64,000 nucleotides of DNA from an uncultured Candidatus Saccharibacteria bacterium (lineage in GTDB: Bacteria > Patescibacteriota > Minisyncoccia > Phycocordibacterales > JACNGX01), in contig CAZULS010000002.1 in NCBI GenBank assembly GCA_964621395.1, positions 23,306-87,305 of the forward strand. Direction: 5' to 3'. Every line of letters starts with the position of its first letter. The first letter of the stretch is position 1. The translations under genes were made by a program, and so were the position numbers. Below are positions 7,756-53,702 of this stretch, piece by piece. The notes beneath the pieces are model-generated. The model did not search any database and was not told the origin of the DNA. It was given only the letters and a program-made list of their open reading frames with translations.

Positions 7756-7806
7756 AAAAACCAAGGTTGAGCTTTGGTATATATACCAAAGCTCAACCTT
7801 GGTTTT
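7756..7806. repeat. Family-B palindrome (aaaaaccaaggttgagctttggtatatataccaaagctcaaccttggtttt)
   Basis: Near-perfect ~50-bp palindrome. Paralogues at 9317-9366 and 24551-24592 carry compensatory arm changes. Confidence 0.7.
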
Positions 7807-9257: not shown

Positions 9258-9395
9258 GTCATCCCGCACTTGATGCGGGATCTCGAGAGAGTGGTTTCGA
9301 AAAGTGGAATTCGGACAAAACCAAAGTTCACCTTTGGTATTCATACCAAAGGTGAACTTTGGTTTTGTAAGATCCCGCATCAAGTGCGGGATGAC
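9258..9395. repeat. ~140-bp compound imperfect palindrome
   Basis: GTCATCCCGCA-CTTGA-TGCGGGAT at 9258-9283, a family-B palindrome at 9317-9366, and the inverted hairpin AGATCCCGCATCAAGTGCGGGATGAC at 9370-9395. Together they form a nested palindrome. Confidence 0.7.
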
Positions 9396-16979: not shown

Positions 16980-17304
16980 TACATTGGGTACGAAGTACGA
17001 ACACATACGAACATACGAAGACTGCTCGCAGTGAGTCACTTGTTGTCATCAAGCACCATACTTTTGACTTCGTGAAGAATATATTCTCTTCAGAAACATA
17101 TTTACTGACAAGCATATTCATTTTCAAACACATAAGTATGGTGCTCGATCCAGGAAACGTACGAAGATTCTGAATCAAGTTCAGGATGACATCGAAAGTG
17201 GTTTATATGTCAAAAATCAGATTCGTATGTTCGTACCAATTCGTAGTTCGTAACTTCTTAATTTCCTAACTTACTAATCTCCTAATTTACTAACGTACTA
17301 TCGT

Positions 17305-23929: not shown

Positions 23930-23991
23930 TCGCTTACTCCTTTACTTGTCATTCCCAACTTGATTGGGAATCTTCGCGGATGTGGTAAGAA

Positions 23992-24380: not shown

Positions 24381-24550
24381 CTTTATAAGAATTCAGTGTT
24401 TTCTTGCAAAATTGCAAACTTCTTTCTGAGTACAGACTAGCATATATGAATAAAAAAGTCAATAGCGCGGAAAAGGGTGATTTTTGGTATAATGGGGAGG
24501 TCATTGAATGGGTCCATTCGGGCCTTTTTATAGGTAATATTGGTGAATTC

Positions 24551-24640
24551 CCAAGGTTAAACCTTGGTATTTATACCAAGGTTTAACCTTGGGAGCTCAG
24601 AGCACGAAGATCCCGCATCAAGTGCGGGATGACAGCAGAA
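24551..24640. repeat. Family-B palindrome plus REP-like hairpin
   Basis: ccaaggttaaaccttggtatttataccaaggtttaaccttgg followed by agatcccgcatcaagtgcgggatgac. It is part of a 560-bp repeat-filled intergenic region upstream of gyrB. Confidence 0.7.
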
Positions 24641-24939
24641 AGAAGTATCTTGTCATCCAGCCCCACTTTCACTAATTACCTTTAAATAACACTAGTCGTC
24701 AAAGAGTTCAGCTAACGAAATGTGGTAATCGTACTTAATCAGTGAAAGTGGGGCTGGATCCAGAGCAGAATCAGGTTGGTCGCATATCCTTGTAGATTCC
24801 TGGTCACCAGAGCCCCACCCAGCCCTTTTCCGAGAAAGAGCTGGGTCGAGCTCGGCAGGAGCCGGGAATGACAGCTTATAGATTTTTGTTTTTCCATTTA
24901 TTTTTTATCGTTTATAGTTAACCGTTCATCGTTTTATCC

Positions 24940-28174: not shown

Positions 28175-28918
28175 TCACGCCTCATCTCTCTTTCGTATAA
28201 TCTCAGTGGCCTCAGAAAGCTGCTCCTGCGTGTTTACGCCGAGGATATCGGTGTGATCGGGAGCTGTGTAGGCAGTCACGAGAAGTCCTTTGTCGTGGAA
28301 GATGCCAATGATATCGGTGATGTAGTATTCATTTTGAGCGTTATGACTACTGAGCTCTTCAAGAGCAGGAAGAAGGTATTCTTTACGAAAGAGATACGTG
28401 CCGGAATTGACCTCTCCAACAGCGCGTTCTTCATCGTTTGCGTCTTTTTCCTCCACGATACGTATCACAGCACCGCTACTATCACGAATAATGCGACCAT
28501 ATGCATATGGATTGGGAATATGTGCCGAGAGAATAGTTGCCGCTCCGCCATTGGCACGATGATGTTCAAGCGTGCCGGACAATGTTTCCGGAGTAATGAG
28601 AGGGTTATCTGCGGAGAGAACAAGCACGTCTTCTTCGGGTGCTTTAGAAAGGATTGTTTGCACCGCCCGCACCGCACCGCCCGTACCGTTTAAGCACTCT
28701 TGGACGCCATATAGGGGGCTGTATGTGTCGCATGTGGCGCGAACTTCGTCTGATGAAGGACTCACGACGATAACAAGACGAGTCTTACCGACACCGCGCG
28801 CAGCCTCGATTACATAGTGAATGAGCGGTTTCTTTTCGATCGTATGAAGTGGCTTAGGCAAAGAAGAATGCATCCGCGAACCTTTGCCCGCAGCCATGAT
28901 GACGGTAATGAATGACAT
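28175..28918 (-). CDS. Sugar-phosphate nucleotidyltransferase (GlmU N-terminal-like; no left-handed-beta-helix acetyltransferase domain)
   Basis: N-terminal MAAGKGSRM pyrophosphorylase signature, LNGTGGA, and a 247-aa length corresponding to the uridyltransferase domain only. Confidence 0.75.
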   Translation of the reverse strand: MSFITVIMAAGKGSRMHSSLPKPLHTIEKKPLIHYVIEAARGVGKTRLVIVVSPSSDEVRATCDTYSPLYGVQECLNGTGGAVRAVQTILSKAPEEDVLVLSADNPLITPETLSGTLEHHRANGGAATILSAHIPNPYAYGRIIRDSSGAVIRIVEEKDANDEERAVGEVNSGTYLFRKEYLLPALEELSSHNAQNEYYITDIIGIFHDKGLLVTAYTAPDHTDILGVNTQEQLSEATEIIRKRDEA

Positions 28919-29023: not shown

Positions 29024-29102
29024 TAGATTCCCGCTCGGAGGCGGGAATGACAGCAAACAGACTGAAAAAGTAACCACTGTCATCCCGCACTTGATGCGGG
29101 AT
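29024..29102. repeat. Pair of REP-like hairpins
   Basis: gattcccgctcggaggcgggaatgac at ~29024-29051 and gtcatcccgcacttgatgcgggatct at ~29078-29102, preceded by the hairpin ctggcttgaaccccaagccag. Confidence 0.7.
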
Positions 29103-29112
29103 CTCGCCATAT

Positions 29113-34810: not shown

Positions 34811-35023
34811 GGTGGGGTAAGTATAGCATATGAGCTTATAGCTTTTAGCTTGTAGCTTAGAGGATGTGGTTGTGTATTTTCTCCACTGTCATCCTACACT
34901 TGATGCGGGAATCTTCGCTAATTTCCGAAAGGACGGACCTGTCTGCAAAGTCTGAAAAAGTGTGGTGTAATATTTCCAAAATCTCGTTTGTCCCTGCTTA
35001 TGTATCCGTAGTACAATACAGAT

Positions 35024-37840: not shown

Positions 37841-38731
37841 ATGGCAAATAGACACTTGTGCAGAAGTATCGTGATGCAATCACTCTTTGAGTGGGATTTT
37901 GGCGGGTATACTGCCGATATAACAGAAATTGTGCATCGCAATGCAGAAGAATTCGCACCCGGGGAGACGCATACACCTTTTATGCTTACGCTCGCCGAAG
38001 GTGTGGTGAAAAAACACGCGAAACTTGATGAGATCATTTCGGTCGCCGCACCGGAATGGCCAATCGAAAAAATAGCAACGCTCAATAGAACCGTGCTCCG
38101 CATCGGTCTCTACGAGCTTCTTTTTGGCAATCACTCTGATGTGCCGCCGAAGGTTGCTATCAATGAAGCAATTGAGCTTGCCAAGACATTTGGTGGGGAC
38201 ACCAGCAGTCGTTTTGTAAACGGTGTTCTCGGTGCCGTGTATCGAGAAATGGGTGAGCCGGGCAAAGAACAAAAATCTCAGAAGAAGCAGCCGATTGATC
38301 GAAGCACACTTCCCATAGACCGTCTCATTGGCGCTGTGGTCTATGCCCGGACCGATGAGGGTCTTCGTTTGGGTCTCATTAAAGATGTCTTCGGTAAATG
38401 GACAATGGTGAAGGGCCACCTGAAAGAAGGAGAAGACGATGAGGCGGCCGTGCGAAGAAAAGTGCCGGATGAAATGGGTGCTGAGGTGAGTGAGGTGCGC
38501 GATCTTCTTGGTGAAAATGAGTATTTGGCAAATACCGATGACGGCGGGAAAATTCGCAAGCAGGTAAAATATTATCTCGTGGAAGCACACTACGGTGAGC
38601 TTCGCGCAGGTGAATCAGGCGGTATCGAGGATGCGGCATGGTTCCCGCTTGAAGAGGTTGCCGATCTCACTATGTACGACGATATCGTGCCTATCATTAC
38701 CAAGGGCGTGGAGCTTTTGATGGAGCGATGA
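37841..38731 (+). CDS. NusB-like antitermination domain fused to a NUDIX hydrolase domain
   Basis: N-terminal NusB signature (LNRTVLRIGLYELLF, AINEAIELAKTFGGDTSSRFVNGVLG). The C-terminal half has a Nudix-box-like GHLKEGEDDEAAVRRKVPDEMGAEV. Confidence 0.7.
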   Translation: MANRHLCRSIVMQSLFEWDFGGYTADITEIVHRNAEEFAPGETHTPFMLTLAEGVVKKHAKLDEIISVAAPEWPIEKIATLNRTVLRIGLYELLFGNHSDVPPKVAINEAIELAKTFGGDTSSRFVNGVLGAVYREMGEPGKEQKSQKKQPIDRSTLPIDRLIGAVVYARTDEGLRLGLIKDVFGKWTMVKGHLKEGEDDEAAVRRKVPDEMGAEVSEVRDLLGENEYLANTDDGGKIRKQVKYYLVEAHYGELRAGESGGIEDAAWFPLEEVADLTMYDDIVPIITKGVELLMER

Positions 38732-38744
38732 CATCTATGATGTC

Positions 38745-38822
38745 ATCCCGCACTTGATGCGGGATCTCGTAATTTTTTGCACATACTCTCTTTATCTGGA
38801 TTCCTGGTCAAGCCAGGAATGA
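38745..38822. repeat. Pair of REP-like hairpins
   Basis: gtcatcccgcacttgatgcgggatct and ggattcctggtcaagccaggaatgac. Confidence 0.7.
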
Positions 38823-38853
38823 CGATACTTACTGTTATTAGGTACATTCTCTT

Positions 38854-39555: not shown

Positions 39556-39718
39556 ATCAATGCCACTTCTCTTTCAGAAAAAAGAGAAGTGGCATTGATC
39601 GGTCAGAGGAAGAGTAAACTTGCCGTCATTCATTTCATACTTGATGCGGGATCTAAAAATAAAAAAACCAAAGAAAACACAAAACACTGCGAGCATGTAT
39701 GCTCGCAGTGTTTTGTGT

Positions 39719-39924
39719 TCCCAACGCCCTCTCTTGTCATTCCGGCCTCCGAGCCGGAATCCAGGGTCTTGTGCATATTATTTATGTCTGACTGGATTCT
39801 GAATCAAGTTCAGAATGACAAGTTATTACTTTCCACTGTCATTCCCGCCTCCGAGCGGGAATCTTCACAGAATCATCCTCAGAGGTTAGCTTGGGGAGAT
39901 CCCGCATCAAGTGCGGGATGACAC
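39719..39924. repeat. BIME-like cluster of four REP-like hairpins in alternating orientation
   Basis: GTCATTCCGGC-CTCCGA-GCCGGAAT (+), ATTCTGAA-TCAAG-TTCAGAATGAC (-), GTCATTCCCGC-CTCCGA-GCGGGAAT (+), AGATCCCGCATCAAGTGCGGGATGAC (-). A gcaacgcgatcatgaatgaccgcgctgc terminator-like hairpin follows at ~39945-39972. Confidence 0.75.
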
Positions 39925-40064
39925 AAAATAGAGTATAGAAAAAGCAACGCGATCATGAATGACCGCGCTGCTTTCTGTGCCGTTGACATACAGAGTGTAT
40001 AATGCTTAACTAACTATGGTCCTAAAAAGTTGTTTCAGGTTTAATCCAAAAGGAGAAGAGAACG

Positions 40065-40553
40065 ATGGGTAATACTACACAGAAGCTACCTTCAGAAGAA
40101 GTGTTTATGCAAGCACTTCAAATACTTAACCAGTCAGGACATCTCTTTGAAGACTATCTTGCGAAATCAGTTATTTCACGACAGGTTAAGTTATTGCAAC
40201 AGCAAAAACCGGAATCTCTTGAAATTTTGTCGTCTTCTGAGTTATTAGACCTCTTTTTCGACGTTCCTCTTCCTTCTTCTCGAGAACAAGTTGTTGTCAT
40301 GAACGAAATTGTTTCTCGATTTGAGAAGGTTGATGATTTCACGGGCGTGTATGAACTTTATAAAAGTTCTGAAATGTTTTCCGCACTATGGGGACGTGCA
40401 CATGAGAGAATATTTCTTTGCGGTTGGTTATCGAAATGCGAGACAGAGAATCACGTGCGTGAAGTATGGGAAAAGGCGGTGGGAAGTAGGTGCCACCTCT
40501 ACTCCATGTTCCTTATTCTGAAACGCCTTGCTGAAATTATTACCAAAGAGTGA
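40065..40553 (+). CDS. Hypothetical protein (162 aa)
   Basis: Clean ORF with no motif, followed by the terminator taacgactgtgtgagcagtcgtttttt (~40620-40647). Confidence 0.4.
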   Translation: MGNTTQKLPSEEVFMQALQILNQSGHLFEDYLAKSVISRQVKLLQQQKPESLEILSSSELLDLFFDVPLPSSREQVVVMNEIVSRFEKVDDFTGVYELYKSSEMFSALWGRAHERIFLCGWLSKCETENHVREVWEKAVGSRCHLYSMFLILKRLAEIITKE

Positions 40554-40661
40554 ACAAGGCCGTTTCAAAAGACTGTACAAGAAGTACAGTCTTTTTTCTA
40601 TTTTAGTCGTAACTTCTCTTAACGACTGTGTGAGCAGTCGTTTTTTGCTATAATACAGAGC

Positions 40662-42914
40662 ATGCTGAAATCGATTGAGGTGCAGGGGTTTAAGTCGTTT
40701 GCGAAGAAGAGCGAGCTTGAATTCTCCGCACCTATTTCTTGTATTGTGGGGCCCAACGGTTCCGGAAAATCAAATGTCACCGAGGCGCTGCGCTTTGTCT
40801 TGGGTGAGCAGTCTATGAAATCGCTTCGCAGCAAACGCGGAGAGGATTTGATTTGGAGCGGGTCGCAGGGGGCGCCGCGTTCGGGACGAGCGAGTGTGGA
40901 GATTGTCTTTGATAATACAAAGCGCATGTTTGATATGGATTTCGATGAAGTGTCGCTCAAACGCGTGGTCTCACGCGACGGAACAAACGAATATTTTGTG
41001 AATGGCTCGGCGGTGCGCCTGAAAGATGTGATGGAGCTTCTCTCCTCAGTGCATGTGGGCGCGTCCGGGCATCATATTATTTCCCAAGGAGAGGCGGACC
41101 GTATTTTGAATACATCGGCGAAAGAGCGTCGCAATATTGTGGAAGATGCGCTCGGTTTGAAAATTTATCACTTCAAGATTGCCGAGAGCGAAAAGAAGCT
41201 CAAGAAAACAGAGGAGAACATGAAGGAGGTGGAGGCTTTGCGAAGAGAGATTGCGCCTCATATGCGTTTCCTCAAAAAGCAGGTGGAGAAGGTGGAGAAG
41301 GCTCAAGAGCTTCGAGAAAAGCTCCGCGGACTCTATGTGGAGTATCTCAAGCGTGAGTCGCTCTATCTTGCGCATGCCGGAGATGAATACGAAACAAAAA
41401 AGAAAGAGCTTTCTCACAAACTTGAAGCGGTGGAGAAACGCATTGCCGAGGCACAAGCACGCATTGCCGGCCAAGAGAAGGGAGAGGACGTGGAGGATAC
41501 GTCAAAGCGATTACAGCTTGAAGAGGCGGTGAAAAAAGCACGTGAGAGAAAGGAGGTGGCGGGCAAAGAGCTCGGGCGCATTGAAGGTATGCTTTCAATT
41601 ACCGAAGGGCGTATTGCGCGTGCTGAAAAAGAGACCTATCATCCCGTGAGTCACGAATCAGTAACGCGTTTTCTTGATGGATTAGAGGAAGCGCTGAAAG
41701 ACACGAGCGACACCAGTATGCTCGGACGTATCCTCATGGATGTGAAAAAGCGCATTGAAGATTTTCGCTCGTCGGTCGTGAGCGAGAGTAAGGAAGCGGA
41801 AATTGCTGCTGCCGCCGAAGAGAAGGTGCGATTGGAGACAGAGCGAAAGGAAGCACATGATTTCTTTGAACACGCGGGAAACGATGAAGACGCGGCGCGG
41901 CGCGCACTGGCCGCTTACGAACACGAAGTAGCGGAAGAGAAAAGCGCATCACACACTGCCGAAACGGAACTCTATGCGTATCGCGCGGAAAGAAACGAGA
42001 TTTCTGCACAGATGGCACGTGTGGAGGACACTCTGGCGCGTATTGAAAAAGACTCGCACGTCTTTGAAGAAGAGATTCGTGAAGGCATGGTGCTCATTGG
42101 CGGTGCTATTCGAGATTTTGATACGTATGTATGTGATGAGACAGAAGCACTGAATGAAGCGCGCGAGGCCCAGGAGGATCGCCGTCGCAGTATTGAGCGT
42201 ATTAAGATTCGCTTAGAGGAGACAGGGGTTGGCGGGGGAGAAGACGTGCTGAAGGAATACGAAGAGACAGCAGAGCGCGATGGATTCCTTGCTTCACAGC
42301 TCGGTGATTTGGAAGAGACAGCCACATCACTTCGCACACTTGCAGCTGAGTTGGAGGCAGAGCTTGATACGGCGTTTAAGAGTGGTTTGGAGAAAATCAA
42401 TGAACAATTCAATACCTTTTTCACGCTTATGTTTGGTGGGGGAAATGCCGCACTCAAACTGGTAAAAATGGAAAAGCGCAAGAAGAAAGATGAGGAGATT
42501 GATATTGATATGGATAATATGGACGGAAGCCTAAACGCCGACGAGTCGGCGTCGGCCGAGGAGGGAATCGATATTGCGGTGTCGTTGCCACGAAAGAAAA
42601 TCCACGGACTGCAGATGCTCTCAGGTGGGGAGCGTGCACTGACATCTATTGCACTCATCTTTGCCATGTCGCAGATCAACCCGCCGCCGTTTCTCGTCCT
42701 TGATGAAACGGACGCGGCACTCGATGAAGCCAATTCGCGCCGCTATGGCGACATGCTCGAGAATCTTGCAAAGCATTCCCAGCTTATTGTGGTGACCCAC
42801 AATCGCGAGACGATGTCACGGGCAGGTGTGCTCTACGGTGTGACTATGGGATCCGACGCTGTTTCTCGCCTCATCTCAGTGAAGCTCGAAGAAGCTGCGG
42901 CGTATGCGAAATGA
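40662..42914 (+). CDS. smc: SMC-family chromosome-segregation-type ABC ATPase (short coiled coil, 750 aa)
   Basis: N-terminal IEVQGFKSFA...GPNGSGKSN, long coiled-coil middle, ABC signature LSGGERALTSIAL, Walker B/D-loop FLVLDETDAALD. It contains the in-frame palindromic element at 42529-42566. An extended -10 TGcTATAAT lies at 40638-40646. Confidence 0.8.
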   Translation: MLKSIEVQGFKSFAKKSELEFSAPISCIVGPNGSGKSNVTEALRFVLGEQSMKSLRSKRGEDLIWSGSQGAPRSGRASVEIVFDNTKRMFDMDFDEVSLKRVVSRDGTNEYFVNGSAVRLKDVMELLSSVHVGASGHHIISQGEADRILNTSAKERRNIVEDALGLKIYHFKIAESEKKLKKTEENMKEVEALRREIAPHMRFLKKQVEKVEKAQELREKLRGLYVEYLKRESLYLAHAGDEYETKKKELSHKLEAVEKRIAEAQARIAGQEKGEDVEDTSKRLQLEEAVKKARERKEVAGKELGRIEGMLSITEGRIARAEKETYHPVSHESVTRFLDGLEEALKDTSDTSMLGRILMDVKKRIEDFRSSVVSESKEAEIAAAAEEKVRLETERKEAHDFFEHAGNDEDAARRALAAYEHEVAEEKSASHTAETELYAYRAERNEISAQMARVEDTLARIEKDSHVFEEEIREGMVLIGGAIRDFDTYVCDETEALNEAREAQEDRRRSIERIKIRLEETGVGGGEDVLKEYEETAERDGFLASQLGDLEETATSLRTLAAELEAELDTAFKSGLEKINEQFNTFFTLMFGGGNAALKLVKMEKRKKKDEEIDIDMDNMDGSLNADESASAEEGIDIAVSLPRKKIHGLQMLSGGERALTSIALIFAMSQINPPPFLVLDETDAALDEANSRRYGDMLENLAKHSQLIVVTHNRETMSRAGVLYGVTMGSDAVSRLISVKLEEAAAYAK

Positions 42915-42966
42915 TTTTGAAATATGAAGAACGAAATATGAAATATGTATAAAACAGAGCAATCTT

Positions 42967-43047
42967 CTCCTCCGTCATCCCGCACTTGATGCGGGATCTC
43001 GAGCAAGTGCTTTCATAAAATAAGATTCCCGATCAAGTCGGGAATGA
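42967..43047. repeat. Pair of REP-like hairpins
   Basis: gtcatcccgcacttgatgcgggatct and gattcccgatcaagtcgggaatgac. Confidence 0.7.
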
Positions 43048-43127
43048 CAAAAAATAGAAAAAGAAAAAGGCGCGATGTTCCTTCAGGAACATCGCGCCGT
43101 CTCGATTTTCGCGGTACCATATTATAT

Positions 43128-43514: not shown

Positions 43515-43678
43515 TATGGTGTCATTCTGAACTCGATTCAGAATCTATCCCGATGTTGTCTTTAATGACGAAGATTCCGCATCAAGTGCGGAATGACAGA
43601 GAATAGAAAAAAGAAAAAGGCGCGATGTTCCCGAAGGAACACCGCGCCTTTTGGCTTGAGAAAGTAAAAACCCGGCAA

Positions 43679-48650: not shown

Positions 48651-48726
48651 AAAAAAGTGCCCAAAAGGGCACTTTTTTGCAGCACATAAGAACACACGCG
48701 CAAGCTAAAGCCTGCGCGTGTGTTCT
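48651..48726. terminator. Two consecutive terminator hairpins at the left boundary of the AT-rich island
   Basis: aaaaaagtgcccaaaagggcacttttttgc and gaacacacgcgcaag-ctaaag-cctgcgcgtgtgttc. Confidence 0.6.
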
Positions 48727-48881
48727 TTCAAGTACAAAGAATTATAATTATATAATTCCTGTAAATCACCGGCTTCTAAAGAGTACGGAAAGATGTTATA
48801 ATGTGAAAAATATTGTATTGAGCGTAATATGGAAGCAGACAAAGAGAATACTTTACATCAATACATTCTTAAACTAAGAAT

Positions 48882-49862
48882 ATGGCAAACAAAAATTCAG
48901 CACAAATGATAACGGGGAAATCTTTCGAGTATGCTCTTCTTGTTTCGTTTGAGGATAAGTTAAAGAGTAAAACCAACCTTGAAGTAATTAAGAACTCAGC
49001 TTTTTATGTTGCAAAAAGTTGTTTCGACAGTGTCTCTCCGAGCAAAAGAAGCGAGTATCTTTTATCAGCAAGTTTTGCTGTGAATTTTCTAATGGATATA
49101 GAACCTAGACTCTCAAACGATATGGGCAAAGATGATGTTCTTCAGCTTGAAATTTTATCTGATGATTATGGTAAGACAGGCGATGTTCGTGATGTGCTTG
49201 CTATCAGATTACTTCAGAAATGGGAAATTGGAGTTTCTGCAAAGAATAACCATAAAGCAGTTAAACATCCGCGACTATCTTCAGATATAGATTTTGGTGA
49301 TAAGTGGCTAGGCATTAAGGCGTCAGAAAAATATTTTGATGCAGTGGTGCCCATATTTGACCTTCTTAAGAAGATTAAAAAAGAGAGTGAGGGAAAGAAA
49401 AAATGGAATGAACTAAAAAATTATCACGCAGAGATATACGTACCAATCCTTCAGGCATTTGTAGAGGAGTTGAGAAGTCTTTATAAAAAGAATCCTAAAA
49501 AGGTAGCCTCAAATTTAGTTGCATATCTTGTTGGTAATAGGGATTTCTATAAGGTAATCAAGGGCAAGAACTCTGTAGAAATTCACGCTTATAATTTGAA
49601 CGGGACATTAAATTTACCTTTCAAGGAAATTCAGCCAAAATACAAGACCCCTAAAGTTCCTCTTCCTACGGAGATTACCGATATAGTCTTCAAAACCGAC
49701 AGTGATACAACAGTAATAGTTACTATGAACAATGACTGGACACTATCTTTTAGGATTCATAGTGCAAGTTCTAGAGTCGAACCATCTTTAAAGTTTGATA
49801 TAAATCTATTGAAGTCACCAAAGAAATTATTCAAGAATACACTGAATATCAGTCACGATTAA
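48882..49862 (+). CDS. Putative Type II restriction endonuclease (partner of the adjacent GGCC-type m5C methyltransferase)
   Basis: A 326-aa Lys-rich protein with no recognisable catalytic motif. Its stop is 3 nt before the MTase start, so the two are translationally coupled. Size and context match HaeIII-family REases. The assignment rests on association. Confidence 0.5.
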   Translation: MANKNSAQMITGKSFEYALLVSFEDKLKSKTNLEVIKNSAFYVAKSCFDSVSPSKRSEYLLSASFAVNFLMDIEPRLSNDMGKDDVLQLEILSDDYGKTGDVRDVLAIRLLQKWEIGVSAKNNHKAVKHPRLSSDIDFGDKWLGIKASEKYFDAVVPIFDLLKKIKKESEGKKKWNELKNYHAEIYVPILQAFVEELRSLYKKNPKKVASNLVAYLVGNRDFYKVIKGKNSVEIHAYNLNGTLNLPFKEIQPKYKTPKVPLPTEITDIVFKTDSDTTVIVTMNNDWTLSFRIHSASSRVEPSLKFDINLLKSPKKLFKNTLNISHD

Positions 49863-49864
49863 CT

Positions 49865-50842
49865 ATGAAATTAGTATCTTTGTTTACAGGCGCAGGAGGG
49901 CTTGATCTCGGATTTGAAAAGGTCGGTTTTCAGGTTATTTGGGCAAATGAATTCGATAAATCAATATGGAAGACTTTTGAACATAATTTTCCACATACAA
50001 AATTAGATAAGAAGAGCATCACAGAAGTTCAATCATGTGAAGTACCGGACGCAGACGGGTTTATTGGCGGACCTCCTTGTCAGAGCTGGAGTGAAGCAGG
50101 TGCCGGACGAGGGATAGACGATAAGCGTGGACAACTCTTTCATGATTATATTCGTCTTCTAAAGGATAAACAGCCGAAGTTTTTCCTTGCTGAAAATGTA
50201 TCCGGCATTCTTCATCCCAAACATTCGGAAGCTTTTTCAAATATTATCAAGGAATTTGAGAACGCAGGATATGTTGTGTCTCAAAAATTATTAAATGCGA
50301 ACGATTATGATGTTCCACAGGATAGATTACGTGTCATCATCATTGGATATCACAAGGATCTAGGAAAGAAGTTTGAATTTCCTGAGCCACAAATATATAA
50401 ACCTGTTCTCAGGGACGCTATTTATGACTTGCGCAGAGCGAAGCCGGCCAAAGATAGGAACAAGACAAATGGTGAGAGTTTGGAAATACCGAATCATGAA
50501 TATATGAACGGCGGTTTTTCGACGATTTACATGTCTAGAAATCGTGTGCGAGCTTGGGATGAGCCATCATTTACAATACAGGCAGGTGGTCGTCATGCGC
50601 CAATTCATCCACAGGCCCCGAAAATGAAATTCATCGAACAAAATAAAAGAATCTTTGTCCCTGGGTACGAAGATAAGTATCGTCGGCTGTCTGTTCGAGA
50701 GTGCGCGAGAATCCAGACGTTTCCGGATGATTTTATATTTAAATATAACGATGTTGCGAATGGATATAAAATGATCGGTAACGCTGTGCCAGTTAATTTT
50801 GCGAAGCATATTGCACGGAAGATAATGGATGATTTAGTATAG
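49865..50842 (+). CDS. DNA (cytosine-5)-methyltransferase, M.HaeIII-like
   Basis: Motif I LFTGAGGLDLGF, motif IV GGPPCQSWSEAG, motif VI FLAENV, motif VIII QDRLRVIIIG, motif X GNAVPVNF, in a 325-aa protein with a short target-recognition domain. The overall sequence strongly recalls the HaeIII/NgoPII GGCC group. Confidence 0.9.
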   Translation: MKLVSLFTGAGGLDLGFEKVGFQVIWANEFDKSIWKTFEHNFPHTKLDKKSITEVQSCEVPDADGFIGGPPCQSWSEAGAGRGIDDKRGQLFHDYIRLLKDKQPKFFLAENVSGILHPKHSEAFSNIIKEFENAGYVVSQKLLNANDYDVPQDRLRVIIIGYHKDLGKKFEFPEPQIYKPVLRDAIYDLRRAKPAKDRNKTNGESLEIPNHEYMNGGFSTIYMSRNRVRAWDEPSFTIQAGGRHAPIHPQAPKMKFIEQNKRIFVPGYEDKYRRLSVRECARIQTFPDDFIFKYNDVANGYKMIGNAVPVNFAKHIARKIMDDLV

Positions 50843-50846
50843 AGAT

Positions 50847-52784
50847 ATGAGAATTATAGAACGTATAGAAATCGCCTATTTTCGCTCTTTTCCTGAAAGT
50901 ACGATTATAAAAGATTGCAGGGACTTGAATGTCTTTTCTGGTGCGAATGATTCGGGAAAATCAAATATTCTTAGAGCATTAAATCTCTTTTTTTCGGAAA
51001 CGAAAACAGATTTTTATCAGATGATTGATTTTGAAAAAGATTTTTCTAAAGAGAGAGAGAATGTCGTTACGAAAGACACGGTGAAGGGTAAGAAATTTTT
51101 TCGTATCAGTATCTTGTTTAACAAAAAAGGTCTCGGCATATCCTCAACTGTTCTACCGGATTCGTTTTGGGTTGAGAAGGTTTGGGATAAAGAAGGTTCA
51201 ATGACTTCTAGAAAAACGAAGAATGGTAAACGACAACTTATATATGATGATGGTGCTAGCAAAAGGCAGACAAAGGTAGAGACTGCCACGACGATGTTTT
51301 TGAAAAAAATAGATTTTGCCTATGTCCCAGCGATAAGGGATAAATCTTTTTTTGACTATTTGAAGAAGGAATACCAAGATTCTCTTGGGCGCAAAATTTC
51401 TCGTCTGACTAACATTGCTACAGACGATAAGAGGACCATTGAAGAGTGGCTGAATATTTTAACAGTTGGTGACTTAACTGAGCAACTCGATAAAAAGATA
51501 GATCAGGAGTCAAAGGCTCTTATGAAAAAATTTAAAGAGTATACTCATGAGATAAAAGAGTCCGCCTTTTCTATCCCTAATTTAAAACTTGATTTTTCAC
51601 AAGTCCTTGAGATTGCAACTGAGCAGAATATCTACCTTCCTTTTCGTGGTGATGGGGTTCAGGCGAAATTTATTCCACAGATAATGACGGAGATTACGAA
51701 GAATAAAAAGACCCCAATTGTCATATGGGGCTTTGAAGAACCAGAAAATTCACTGGAATATAGAAATGCCCAACAGTTTGCCGAATTACTTCTCAGTGAG
51801 AGCTTAAAGGAAAAACAAGTGTTCGTTACTAGTCATGCATTTAATTTTATTGCCCTACAAGGTGAAAACGTATCTCAGTATAGAGTCTATAAAGGTGAGA
51901 AAAATGAAACGAATATTACCTCTTTGAACGTAGAACAAAGTTCTATTTTTGAAAAAAGCGATAGAGACCTTTTGTCAGAGGAGTTGGGTGTTTTTGAGTT
52001 AAACAATGAACTGAGGTCAGTCTATAGCCTGAAAATTAATGAGATAAATCTCTTTAAGGAAAAAAAGTCAGAATACGAAAGACTGTTATCTTCCAGACCA
52101 GACAAGATATTTATTTGTGAAGACTCAAAGCCAAACATTGTTTCTTTGTGGGAGAGGTTTTTGGTGGACCTTGATATTCAGGACGTCAAAGTTATGTCAT
52201 CCGAAGGTTCAACACAAAATATTGTCGAATTAGGAATTCTTCATCAGAAAAAGCTTGATCCAGAATATAATCCATCTGTATTTAGGCAAATTGATAGAGA
52301 CGGACTAACTGATGGTCAGATGAAGGCTCTTGAAGAAAAACTCTTTAGGCAATTTAAGAGAGATATAAAGAAATATGAGTATTCTTTTCTTCCTGTTAAC
52401 GAGATTGAGAATTTTGCGGTTATTCAGAAAGAAGATATTTTCAATGGAGATTTTTGGAAAGTAAATCAAAAAAAGATAGAGGATAAATTTATGAGTACAG
52501 TAGAGGGAAGTTCGAAAAAGTTCTCAAAACTATTTGACACAGAAACTGAGAAAAGAGAATGGTTATTATTTCGGGATAAGGGTGGCGGCTTCTCTTCTGT
52601 TTATAAAGGGATGAGAGACTTCGCACAAAAAGACGGGAATAGATTTTTTCCTGGTAAAGATATTTGCAAGGAGATAGATAATTTCTCAGGAATTACTTTT
52701 TTAACTCACCTTGCTCCAGAGACATATTCGGAGGATTTGAAAGAGTATCTTAGTAGTATTAAAAATTTTTTTGAAGAATCATAG
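50847..52784 (+). CDS. ABC-type ATPase (AAA_15/AAA_21-like) fused to a C-terminal Toprim/DUF4435-like nuclease domain; OLD-family / fused PARIS (AriAB)-like / Gabija GajA-like defence protein
   Basis: N-terminal IERIEIAYFRSF and Walker A GANDSGKSN (nt ~50941-50967), Walker B/D-loop IVIWGFEEPENSLE, H-loop VFVTSHA. The C-terminal domain has a conserved Glu in IFICEDSKPN (nt ~52110), DxD in RQIDRDGLTD (nt ~52290), and FLPVNEIENFAV. The start is 4 nt after the MTase stop. Confidence 0.7.
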   Translation: MRIIERIEIAYFRSFPESTIIKDCRDLNVFSGANDSGKSNILRALNLFFSETKTDFYQMIDFEKDFSKERENVVTKDTVKGKKFFRISILFNKKGLGISSTVLPDSFWVEKVWDKEGSMTSRKTKNGKRQLIYDDGASKRQTKVETATTMFLKKIDFAYVPAIRDKSFFDYLKKEYQDSLGRKISRLTNIATDDKRTIEEWLNILTVGDLTEQLDKKIDQESKALMKKFKEYTHEIKESAFSIPNLKLDFSQVLEIATEQNIYLPFRGDGVQAKFIPQIMTEITKNKKTPIVIWGFEEPENSLEYRNAQQFAELLLSESLKEKQVFVTSHAFNFIALQGENVSQYRVYKGEKNETNITSLNVEQSSIFEKSDRDLLSEELGVFELNNELRSVYSLKINEINLFKEKKSEYERLLSSRPDKIFICEDSKPNIVSLWERFLVDLDIQDVKVMSSEGSTQNIVELGILHQKKLDPEYNPSVFRQIDRDGLTDGQMKALEEKLFRQFKRDIKKYEYSFLPVNEIENFAVIQKEDIFNGDFWKVNQKKIEDKFMSTVEGSSKKFSKLFDTETEKREWLLFRDKGGGFSSVYKGMRDFAQKDGNRFFPGKDICKEIDNFSGITFLTHLAPETYSEDLKEYLSSIKNFFEES

Positions 52785-52879
52785 CCAATAATTTATCTCC
52801 TTTCCGATATTTGCATTCTCAGGAAGACCAGATCTTAGAGAGTGCGAATATGAGGAGAGTAGATTCGTAATTCGTAACT

Positions 52880-53548
52880 ATGCATTTTCATGTGATTACA
52901 ATTTTTCCTGAGATGGTGCGGGGGTATGTTGACTCTGCGCTTCTTTTGCGTGCGCAGAAGGAGAAAAAGATTTCCGTGTCGTGTTATGATCCGCGAGATT
53001 TTACGAAAGATAAATGGCGGAAGATTGATGACCGTCCGTATGGGGGCGGGCCTGGTATGGTGATGGAAGCGGAGCCTATTTTGAAGGCGGTGAAGAAGGC
53101 GCGAGGGAAAAAGCTTGTATCATCGAAGACCGGCCAAGGGGAAAAGGTGAAGACGATTATTGTGTCGCCGCGCGGTGAGCAATTTTCAAATGACATGGCG
53201 GAGAAATGGGCGAAGCGCTACGACCATCTCGTGATTATTTCGGGGCGGTATGAGGGGATTGACGCGCGTGTGAAAAAGGCGCTTCGGGCTGAGGAGATTT
53301 CTATGGGGCCGTATGTTCTTACCGGCGGGGAAGTGCCGGCAATGGCGATTATTGATGCGACGGCGCGACGGATTCCGGGAGTTCTTGGAAATGAAGAATC
53401 GCCGGAGGAATACCGAGTAGCTTCGGGGGAGACATACACCCGTCCGGAGGTATTTACCTATGAAGGAAAACAATATCGCGTGCCGAAGGTGCTTCTTTCG
53501 GGGGATCATGGTGCGATAGAGGAGTGGAGACGGAAAAGCTCCAAATAA
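52880..53548 (+). CDS. trmD: tRNA (guanine37-N1)-methyltransferase
   Basis: MHFHVITIFPEM, DDRPYGGGPGMVM, and the SPOUT-knot region ISGRYEGIDARV. Confidence 0.92.
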   Translation: MHFHVITIFPEMVRGYVDSALLLRAQKEKKISVSCYDPRDFTKDKWRKIDDRPYGGGPGMVMEAEPILKAVKKARGKKLVSSKTGQGEKVKTIIVSPRGEQFSNDMAEKWAKRYDHLVIISGRYEGIDARVKKALRAEEISMGPYVLTGGEVPAMAIIDATARRIPGVLGNEESPEEYRVASGETYTRPEVFTYEGKQYRVPKVLLSGDHGAIEEWRRKSSK

Positions 53549-53597: not shown

Positions 53598-53702
53598 ACT
53601 GGATTCCCGCTCGTGGGCGGGAATGACAAGAACTGCGTTGGGAATGATAAAAAGGTAGGGAAGTACACAGAAGCACGCAGCGGCACCGAAGGTGCCGCCG
53701 CG
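53598..53702. repeat. REP-like hairpin plus recurring terminator hairpin
   Basis: ggattcccgctcgtgggcgggaatgac, and gcggcaccgaaggtgccgcc, the same stem as at 7687, 9205 and 11102. Confidence 0.65.

Follow-up and report, generated by a model that had tools for sequence, protein, structure and literature searches.

The 64-kb stretch of DNA analysed here (the window; contig CAZULS010000002.1) belongs to a Parcubacteria metagenome-assembled genome (MAG) of the candidate phyla radiation (CPR). Proteins that cluster with those of the window at ≥90% identity bear the name "Parcubacteria group bacterium". Its genes include those for ThrRS, PheST, GyrB, DnaE, RNase III, RNase R, RpoB/C and proteins with T2SSE and T2SSF domains (PilB/PilC-like), as well as several reduced or fused forms: a NusB-Nudix fusion (37841–38731), a 750-aa SMC (40662–42914) and an N-terminal-only GlmU (28175–28918), whose 247-aa product matches the N-terminal (uridylyltransferase) half only. 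Reduced or fused NusB, SMC and GlmU are taken here as typical of CPR genomes. Between the genes lies a dense family of short hairpins that probably represents a known repeat class, the CGTC-tagged repetitive extragenic palindromes (REPs), equated here with the Ssn-related motifs (SRMs) that include the Neisseria repeat NTS.

Scanning the whole window for a GTCAT anchor followed by a perfect hairpin returned 17 perfect copies, and a looser scan that allowed a mismatch added one single-mismatch copy, giving 18 clean copies. A profile hidden Markov model built from these recovers all 18 plus two decayed copies (34888+ and 39625+; E ≤ 0.0013). Two long-stem variants have the same GTC-AT…AT-CCAG outer frame, with stems of 16–18 bp and loops of ~70 nt (17045–17149 and 24652–24759), and at least one relic has a large loop (24795–24872). 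The total is about 20 canonical copies and about 24 of all kinds, or about 0.3 copies per kb. The earlier note on this DNA had claimed more than 25, which is slightly high, but all 18 of the positions that it listed are real, and the dense family that it described is far in excess of what composition predicts for the window: a 24-nt degenerate pattern has 15 matches, against 0.06 expected from dinucleotide-preserving shuffles.

All 18 clean copies share one frame, consisting of Y-GTC, AT plus six variable bases, a loop, the exact complement ending in AT, and then C. Invariant in their alignment are the GTC, the AT at the stem base, the C following the stem and, within the loop, the initial C and the final GA. 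Thirteen copies have the loop CTTGA, one has CTCGA, three have CTCCGA and one has CCACGA (5 nt in 14 copies and 6 nt in four); the 3-nt tail, always starting with C, is CCA in four and CTN in 14. The commonest copy is an exact 25-mer, GTCATCCCGCACTTGATGCGGGATC (the master type). Orientations are used about equally (8 plus, 10 minus). An Rfam scan of the whole window at gathering thresholds returned three tRNAs only, so the hairpins match no curated RNA family. All copies are given below; those listed simply as hairpins are the 18 clean ones, with the 5′ G of the head at the first coordinate (plus) or the last (minus), and L213 and L122 are relatives described further on.

9258–9282, plus: hairpin, master type (GTC ATCCCGCA CTTGA TGCGGGAT C); left member of a 137-nt homodimer; fits the published SRM regular expression
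9371–9395, minus: hairpin, master type; right member of the 137-nt dimer; a 50-nt CCAAAG palindrome is inserted in the spacer
17045–17153, plus: long-stem variant in the same frame; GTC-AT, 16-bp stem with one mismatch, 70-nt loop, AT-CCAG tail; partner of 17190−
17166–17190, minus: hairpin (ATCCTGAA/TTCAGAAT) with one stem mismatch; found by the loose scan, the pattern and the profile
23948–23972, plus: hairpin (ATTCCCAA), 19 nt past the pheT stop; orthologous and identical in L213
24609–24633, minus: hairpin, master type; the L213 site has no copy
24652–24763, plus: long-stem variant in the same frame; fully paired stem of 18 bp, 69-nt loop, CCAG tail; no counterpart in L213
24795–24872, minus: relic with an expanded loop; its head, CGGGAATGAC, is common to the window and L213
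29026–29051, minus: hairpin with a 6-nt loop (ATTCCCGC CTCCGA GCGGGAAT); found by the hairpin scan and the profile
29079–29103, plus: hairpin, master type; ends about 9 nt from the thrS stop
34888–34913, plus: decayed copy with a mutated 5′ arm; L213 retains the opposite half at the orthologous site
38742–38766, plus: hairpin, master type, 11 nt past the nusB stop; left member of an 82-nt heterodimer
38799–38823, minus: hairpin (ATTCCTGG); right member of the 82-nt heterodimer
39625–39653, plus: decayed copy (GTCATTCATTTCATACTTGATGCGGGATC), found as a profile match
39736–39761, plus: hairpin with a 6-nt loop (ATTCCGGC CTCCGA); left member of dimer 1 of the four-copy cluster
39795–39819, minus: hairpin (ATTCTGAA); right member of dimer 1 of the cluster
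39838–39863, plus: hairpin with a 6-nt loop (ATTCCCGC CTCCGA); left member of dimer 2 of the cluster
39898–39922, minus: hairpin, master type; right member of dimer 2 of the cluster
42974–42998, plus: hairpin, master type, 60 nt past the smc stop; the dimer is absent at the L122 site
43024–43048, minus: hairpin (ATTCCCGA); right member of a 75-nt heterodimer
43521–43545, plus: hairpin (ATTCTGAA, loop CTCGA), 7 nt past the ORF156 stop; identical in L122
43573–43597, minus: hairpin (ATTCCGCA); in L122 the stem of the orthologous partner differs yet pairs perfectly
53602–53627, minus: single hairpin (ATTCCCGC CCACGA), between trmD and a T2SSE (PilB-like) gene

Two published descriptions fit this frame. 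The CGTC-tagged REPs (Di Nocera 2013, BMC Genomics, PMC3733652) have a CGTC or TGTC tag, an 8–9 bp stem starting with AT, a 4–5 nt loop and a 3-nt tail (consensus CCA); they are intergenic, occur mainly as inverted dimers (heterodimers in the CGTC-2 type) and include Neisseria dRS3 and Rickettsia RPE-4 and RPE-6. Neisseria NTS (Chenal 2025, Nat Commun, PMC11893778), within which dRS3 lies, is bound and cut by SsnA, a 94-aa GIY-YIG protein, as single-stranded DNA (ssDNA) only; cleavage depends on the trinucleotide 5′ of the palindrome, and binding on the C that directly follows it on the 3′ side. SsnA reduces transformation by NTS-bearing DNA, ssnA genes are typically flanked by the motif, and 81% of RefSeq representative genomes with >200 SRMs carry ssnA (PMC11893778). 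In the window, the positions on which NTS function depends (5′ GTC, 3′ C) are invariant in 18/18 copies, and the SRM regular expression HGTCWYN(0-2)YYVSBRHN(0-5)WNVSBRGN(0-2)RNCYNB matches 6/18 exactly, against 0.24 expected.

A genome search at species level (one genome per species) with the exact 25-mer GTCATCCCGCACTTGATGCGGGATC found it in at least 120 genomic stretches, from genomes labelled with about 15 phylum-level groups: Patescibacteria (several classes), Alpha- and Gammaproteobacteria, Bacteroidota, Rhodothermales/Balneolaceae, Chloroflexi, Campylobacterota, Elusimicrobia, Planctomycetes, Nitrospinota, Melainabacteria, Thermotogae, Omnitrophota, Dependentiae, Calditrichaceae, Ignavibacteria and SAR324. 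Across these phyla the unpaired head and tail do not differ by a single base. A species-specific (gammaproteobacterial) REP, suggested by the 47% G+C content, was rejected, as gene content and protein-cluster names indicate a Parcubacteria host and the 25-mer spans phyla. In unrelated bacteria the same 25-mer also occurs in tandem arrays (L026, 3500–4700; L009, 5150–6030; L070, 3600–4750); the units are 136 nt in Pseudoalteromonas, where each consists of two heads-out SRMs separated by a conserved spacer, and about 354 nt in Mediterranea massiliensis and Pseudovibrio.

The tag also bears on the enzyme. The earlier note had likened the conserved 5′ pentamer to the GTAG guide recognised by REP-associated tyrosine transposases (RAYTs). 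GTAG-type REPs, the bacterial interspersed mosaic elements (BIMEs) and REPINs go together with RAYTs, as reportedly described by Nunvar in 2010, Bertels and Rainey in 2011 and Ton-Hoang in 2012, and a classical element of this type, mobilised by a RAYT (Y1 HUH) encoded elsewhere in the genome, would share with the window family the general REP/REPIN design of short intergenic palindromes, an unpaired 5′ tag and alternating clusters. It is nevertheless highly improbable here, since the tag is YGTC in 18/18 copies and GTAG in none. As the earlier note had stated, the window has no RAYT gene: neither Y1/RAYT nor any other transposase domain is present among the window ORFs scanned (nearly all of those ≥100 aa), and no HUH/Y1 family recurs in the ORF clustering of the 120 loci with the identical 25-mer. 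Likewise, in a survey of five phyla no Y1/tyrosine transposase gene was flanked by CGTC repeats (PMC3733652). The idea that the tag is the cleavage determinant of an enzyme agrees with the NTS data (PMC11893778), but the enzyme that has been shown experimentally to act on such a tag is a GIY-YIG Ssn and not a RAYT.

The 8-bp helix gives 144 stem cells in the 18-copy alignment, of which 99.3% are paired. Both sides have changed in 31 cells, at five of the eight pairs, while single-sided changes and G-T pairs are entirely missing, so the compensatory stem changes proposed earlier are confirmed. None of 500 shuffles reached the observed covariation score and no slid register comes near it either. 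Folded as ssDNA, the copies have energies of −5.6 to −9 kcal/mol (z-scores −2.9 to −5.7) and each dimer forms two separate hairpins. Strict Watson-Crick pairing without wobble and balanced orientations are what DNA-level palindromes show, whereas a helix selected as RNA would not usually look like this.

All copies lie outside the long ORFs, which take up about 86% of the window, and several begin 7–60 nt past stop codons (pheT, thrS, nusB, smc, ORF156, trmD), consistent with the intergenic, often downstream placement first noticed. The predominant arrangement is a heads-out pair (GTCAT-hairpin … hairpin-ATGAC); this arrangement and the fixed unpaired YGTC tag bear out the REP/BIME-like family, clustered in alternating orientation, that had been suggested. 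Six such dimers are present, five of 74–85 nt and one of 137 nt, and 5/6 are heterodimers. The same arrangement dominates in the loci outside the window (n=120), where plus/minus neighbours (n=92) peak at 72–84 nt, often with complementary CCAG…CTGG tails. The four copies in a row reported at 39719–39924 are real but form two dimers (39736+/39819− and 39838+/39922−), and 39719 itself is not the start of a hairpin but the end of an unrelated 21-bp perfect palindrome. Duplication of one larger segment was tested as a source of the copies: their flanking sequences are mutually unrelated, which indicates independent insertions rather than a single duplicated block.

Other repeats adjoin the family. 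A second palindromic family consists of ~50-nt perfect palindromes, each made of two inverted small hairpins (7757–7806, 9317–9367 and 24547–24597), with the pattern (AAAA)CCAARG-N5-CYTTGGTAT / ATACCAARG-N5-CYTTGG(TTTT) (12 matches, 0.29 expected). One copy sits inside dimer 9258–9395 and accounts for its 137-nt length; that at 24547–24597 abuts hairpin 24633−, and L213 has a single half at this third site. A terminator-like hairpin of 13–17 bp (GGCGCGATGTTCC..GGAACATCGCGCC) is duplicated at 43069–43098 and 43615–43652; the copies share an A-rich leader of about 20 nt, each adjoins the head of a minus hairpin, and L122 has one. L001, a short-read Logan contig from the same organism that corresponds to window positions 39894–42999, begins and ends at master copies, so the 25-mers fragment short-read assemblies.

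The position of many copies 7–60 nt past a stop, between same-strand genes, raises the question of whether they act in RNA, as hairpins of the 3′ untranslated region that stabilise, terminate or process mRNA and whose spread is incidental. The folds are stable enough, and REPs and miniature inverted-repeat transposable elements (MITEs) elsewhere have such effects (reviewed in PMC3733652). This explanation is nonetheless unlikely, as no T-tract follows the hairpins (tails CTC, CTT, CCA; one copy was flagged as terminator-like), the neighbouring genes have T-tailed terminators of their own, and both orientations are equally common relative to transcription. The lack of any G-U pair in the stems is unusual for a helix selected as RNA, the head and tail outside the stem do not vary from one phylum to another, and NTS in RNA form is not bound by SsnA (PMC11893778).

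Relatives were drawn from 0.1-µm groundwater filtrates and other metagenomes, and their occupancy of orthologous sites, which the earlier note had proposed to compare, includes empty, shared, relic and divergent cases. L213, a TARA scaffold, is syntenic with window positions 14.5–37 kb at 82–90% nucleotide identity. It has one canonical copy, orthologous to 23948+ and base-for-base identical although its flanks differ, plus two relics (a half copy upstream of dnaE and a large-loop copy upstream of gyrB). Against nine copies of all kinds in the same span of the window, this points to recent expansion. In L122 (about 81% nucleotide identity) the nusB-rnc gap holds different copies in the opposite arrangement, the dimer downstream of smc is missing, and the dimer downstream of ORF156 is shared, one partner having a different perfect stem. 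More distant relatives (57–80% RNase III identity) have few copies or none. The family is thus an old one in this lineage, decaying at some sites and recently expanded in the genome represented by the window.

Hairpin clusters adjoin lineage-specific indels, and both the segment 39556–40615 (hairpins plus ORF162) and ORF240 are absent from L122. Neisseria dRS3, the integration site of Nf prophage, and integron attC sites are precedents for such repeats as recombination sites, here for a site-specific recombinase or an IS110-type transposase, bounding exchangeable gene cassettes. The flanking of these small lineage-specific genes, and the identification of dRS3 within NTS as a target of a phage recombinase (PMC11893778), would fit. 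This reading is decidedly unlikely, however: the window contains no recombinase, integrase or IS110 gene, most dimers lie beside ordinary housekeeping genes, the insertions lack clean cassette boundaries, and the low-GC restriction-modification island at 48.7–52.9 kb does not have hairpins at both ends. Secondary effects on mRNA or recombination may nevertheless occur.

The ~1.06-kb segment 39556–40615, between rnc and smc, contains three long perfect palindromes (39556–39599, 39676–39719 and 39941–39974), five copies of the hairpin, a near-consensus TTGACA/TATAAT-like promoter and ORF162, which has no family hit. At this site L122 has the smc terminator/promoter directly after rnc, while L123 and L125 carry other, unrelated content, marking a variable hot spot. 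The low-GC island (48700–52880; 38% vs 47%) carries genes for a restriction endonuclease of the HaeIII type, a C5 cytosine methyltransferase and an AAA_15/SMC_N ATPase of 645 aa, and is wholly absent from syntenic L122.

ORFs of the 120 loci fetched with the exact 25-mer were clustered before the Ssn paper was found. Apart from short-chain dehydrogenases, the only recurrent accessory family was a GIY-YIG protein of 87–104 aa, present in 7/120 loci. The short-chain dehydrogenases formed the largest ORF cluster (nine loci) and were dismissed as a ubiquitous housekeeping family with no fixed geometry to the hairpins. In L043, L055 and L057 a heads-out hairpin pair encloses the GIY-YIG gene, with 17–30 nt between the gene and either hairpin; the stop codon of the gene is followed by a hairpin in L095 and L097, and the gene also accompanies the identical 25-mer in L117. 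Seven such genes occur in 824 kb of 25-mer loci, vs none in 740 kb of loci anchored on RNase III from related contigs. By its sequence, the L117 protein (94 aa) has Y6, Y17 and E64, and these residue numbers are those mutated in SsnA (PMC11893778). A search with the family gave >7,900 matches at E ≤ 1e-10, including proteins named Candidatus Roizmanbacteria (CPR) that are 81–84% identical to the L043 protein and encoded at an SRM-flanked locus. In some population variants of this locus (L204–L206) an IS3-type element (HTH_Tnp_1 and rve ORFs; 1425–2629) lies just upstream of the SRM-flanked Roizmanbacteria ssn; it is missing from other variants (L203).

Two further candidates were set aside. 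Occurrence of one CPR ssn at several sites, which would be a sign of mobility, was rejected because 10/10 places share the same right-hand context, indicating one locus sampled many times. ORF156, ORF162 and ORF240, flanked by hairpins in the window, were considered as possible nucleases; none has a Pfam hit, and ORF156 and ORF240 resemble hydrophobic membrane proteins.

L203 has a gene-less dimer just upstream of ssn. The left half of its spacer (TCTATAATTACCTTAT) matches the leader of the L043 ssn (ACTATAATAACCTTAT), and the right half (GTATATTATGTCTGGATT) exactly repeats the sequence 3′ of the ssn of L203 itself. With a spacer composed of ssn leader plus trailer, the doublet looks like an SRM-ssn-SRM unit minus the ORF. 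This one pair of loci suggests that the common doublets may be ORF-less derivatives of such units, in parallel with the relationships of MITEs to insertion sequences and of REPINs to RAYTs. The dimer spacers of the window show at most a faint resemblance to the ssn leader or trailer.

On this comparative sequence evidence, the window hairpins are probably SRMs that spread as doublets, with the responsible ssn located elsewhere in the genome or recently lost. Wherever DNA became single-stranded, the short palindrome would fold into an 8-bp hairpin whose polarity would be set by the unpaired 5′ YGTC head and the C-led 3′ tail. A single-domain GIY-YIG Ssn of ~94 aa, as seen in other bacteria, would bind the hairpin and the 3′ C and cut the single strand beside the GTC head; neither double-stranded DNA nor RNA would serve as substrate. 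In Neisseria, such cutting reduces recombination of incoming NTS-bearing DNA. Judging from loci in other genomes, heads-out doublets lacking the ORF would be the form that spreads, and in the genome of the window they have expanded recently in intergenic gaps, many just past stops or beside lineage-specific indels. Their effects may be to mark ssDNA for cleavage during uptake, replication or repair and to provide dispersed hot spots of recombination and indel formation.

Several points weigh against this explanation. To our knowledge, the mechanism of propagation has not been demonstrated experimentally for any SRM. Comparisons with empty sites gave no clean footprint or target duplication; the insertion downstream of smc relative to L122, for example, comprises the dimer plus about 19 and 20 extra nt. 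Twelve of the 18 clean copies miss the SRM regular expression by a few positions in the inner stem, loop or tail (the failing positions were traced for two copies), and the CTTGA and CTCCGA loops are unlike that of Neisseria NTS. Neither the 64-kb window nor ~4 kb of sequence flanking it nor 740 kb of related contigs contains an ssn gene, and 19% of the genomes with >200 SRMs have no detectable SsnA homologue (PMC11893778). The solved structures nearest to these GIY-YIG proteins are of UPF0213 GIY-YIG proteins, and membership of cd10448 is putative. Placement just past stop codons would also suit an RNA-level role.

A more far-reaching version is that the Ssn-SRM lineage marked by GTCATCCCGCACTTGATGCGGGATC moves between distant phyla, including ultra-small Patescibacteria episymbionts and potential host lineages, that it has burst in this genome, and that it serves there as a DNA-uptake tag. 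In an organism dependent on DNA uptake, the array would then label incoming single strands as self or non-self or for the control of recombination, a role that might be linked to the T2SSE/T2SSF (PilB/PilC-like) genes of the same window. Taken as a whole, this has a low though appreciable probability; if true, the identical motif in other phyla would be a tracer of inter-phylum DNA exchange.

For annotation, hairpins of this type should be labelled SRM/CGTC-REP and not REP/RAYT. If so assigned, they extend Ssn-type repeats to a reduced Parcubacteria (CPR) genome, at the density given above. What is new here is the CPR host, the high density, the recent expansion, the long-stem variants in the same frame and a 25-mer unchanged across about 15 phylum-level groups. 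The expansion is lineage-specific and documented against a relative with 82–90% nucleotide identity, and the unchanged 25-mer is a concrete substrate for a broad Ssn specificity class, Ssn enzymes being of interest as site-specific ssDNA nucleases.

Among known systems, the subterminal hairpins of IS200/IS605 are comparable, being ssDNA structures recognised by a protein at either end of a small unit that carries a gene, but those hairpins are imperfect, their cleavage is tetranucleotide-guided, and they belong to ~1-kb elements with a Y1 transposase (TnpA) rather than to 25-nt repeats. GTAG-type REP/RAYT systems are closer in design: a small protein of the nuclease type recognises a polar hairpin in ssDNA form and has the repeat on both sides of its gene, and gene-less inverted doublets make up the bulk of the family, as in REPINs. 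They differ in the tag and in the enzyme (an HUH/Y1 transposase there, GIY-YIG here), and are usually species-specific, whereas the window 25-mer is identical across many phyla.

The CGTC-tagged REPs, particularly of the CGTC-2 type, agree with the window copies in the CGTC/TGTC tag, the 8-bp stem starting with AT, the 5-nt loop and 3-nt tail, and the intergenic location mostly as dimers, and mostly heterodimers, with spacers of 20–100 nt and no associated transposase. Unlike them, four window copies have a 6-nt loop, two have 16–18 bp stems and ~70-nt loops, the tail is more often CTY than CCA, and the phylum lies outside the five-phylum survey (PMC3733652). The window family differs from NTS in its loop (CTTGA/CTCCGA, not GMAV) and its commonest stem (ATCCCGCA, not ATTCCCGC), and from SRM/ssn loci in having no ssn gene within the window; its Parcubacteria (CPR) host belongs to a group unmentioned in the text of the paper describing SRM hosts (PMC11893778). 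It shares with NTS/SRM the HGTC head, the ~8-bp palindrome starting with AT, the short loop and the C directly 3′, as well as numerous intergenic copies clustered around genes in both orientations and, in other genomes with the identical 25-mer, a single-domain GIY-YIG gene of ~95 aa between two hairpins.

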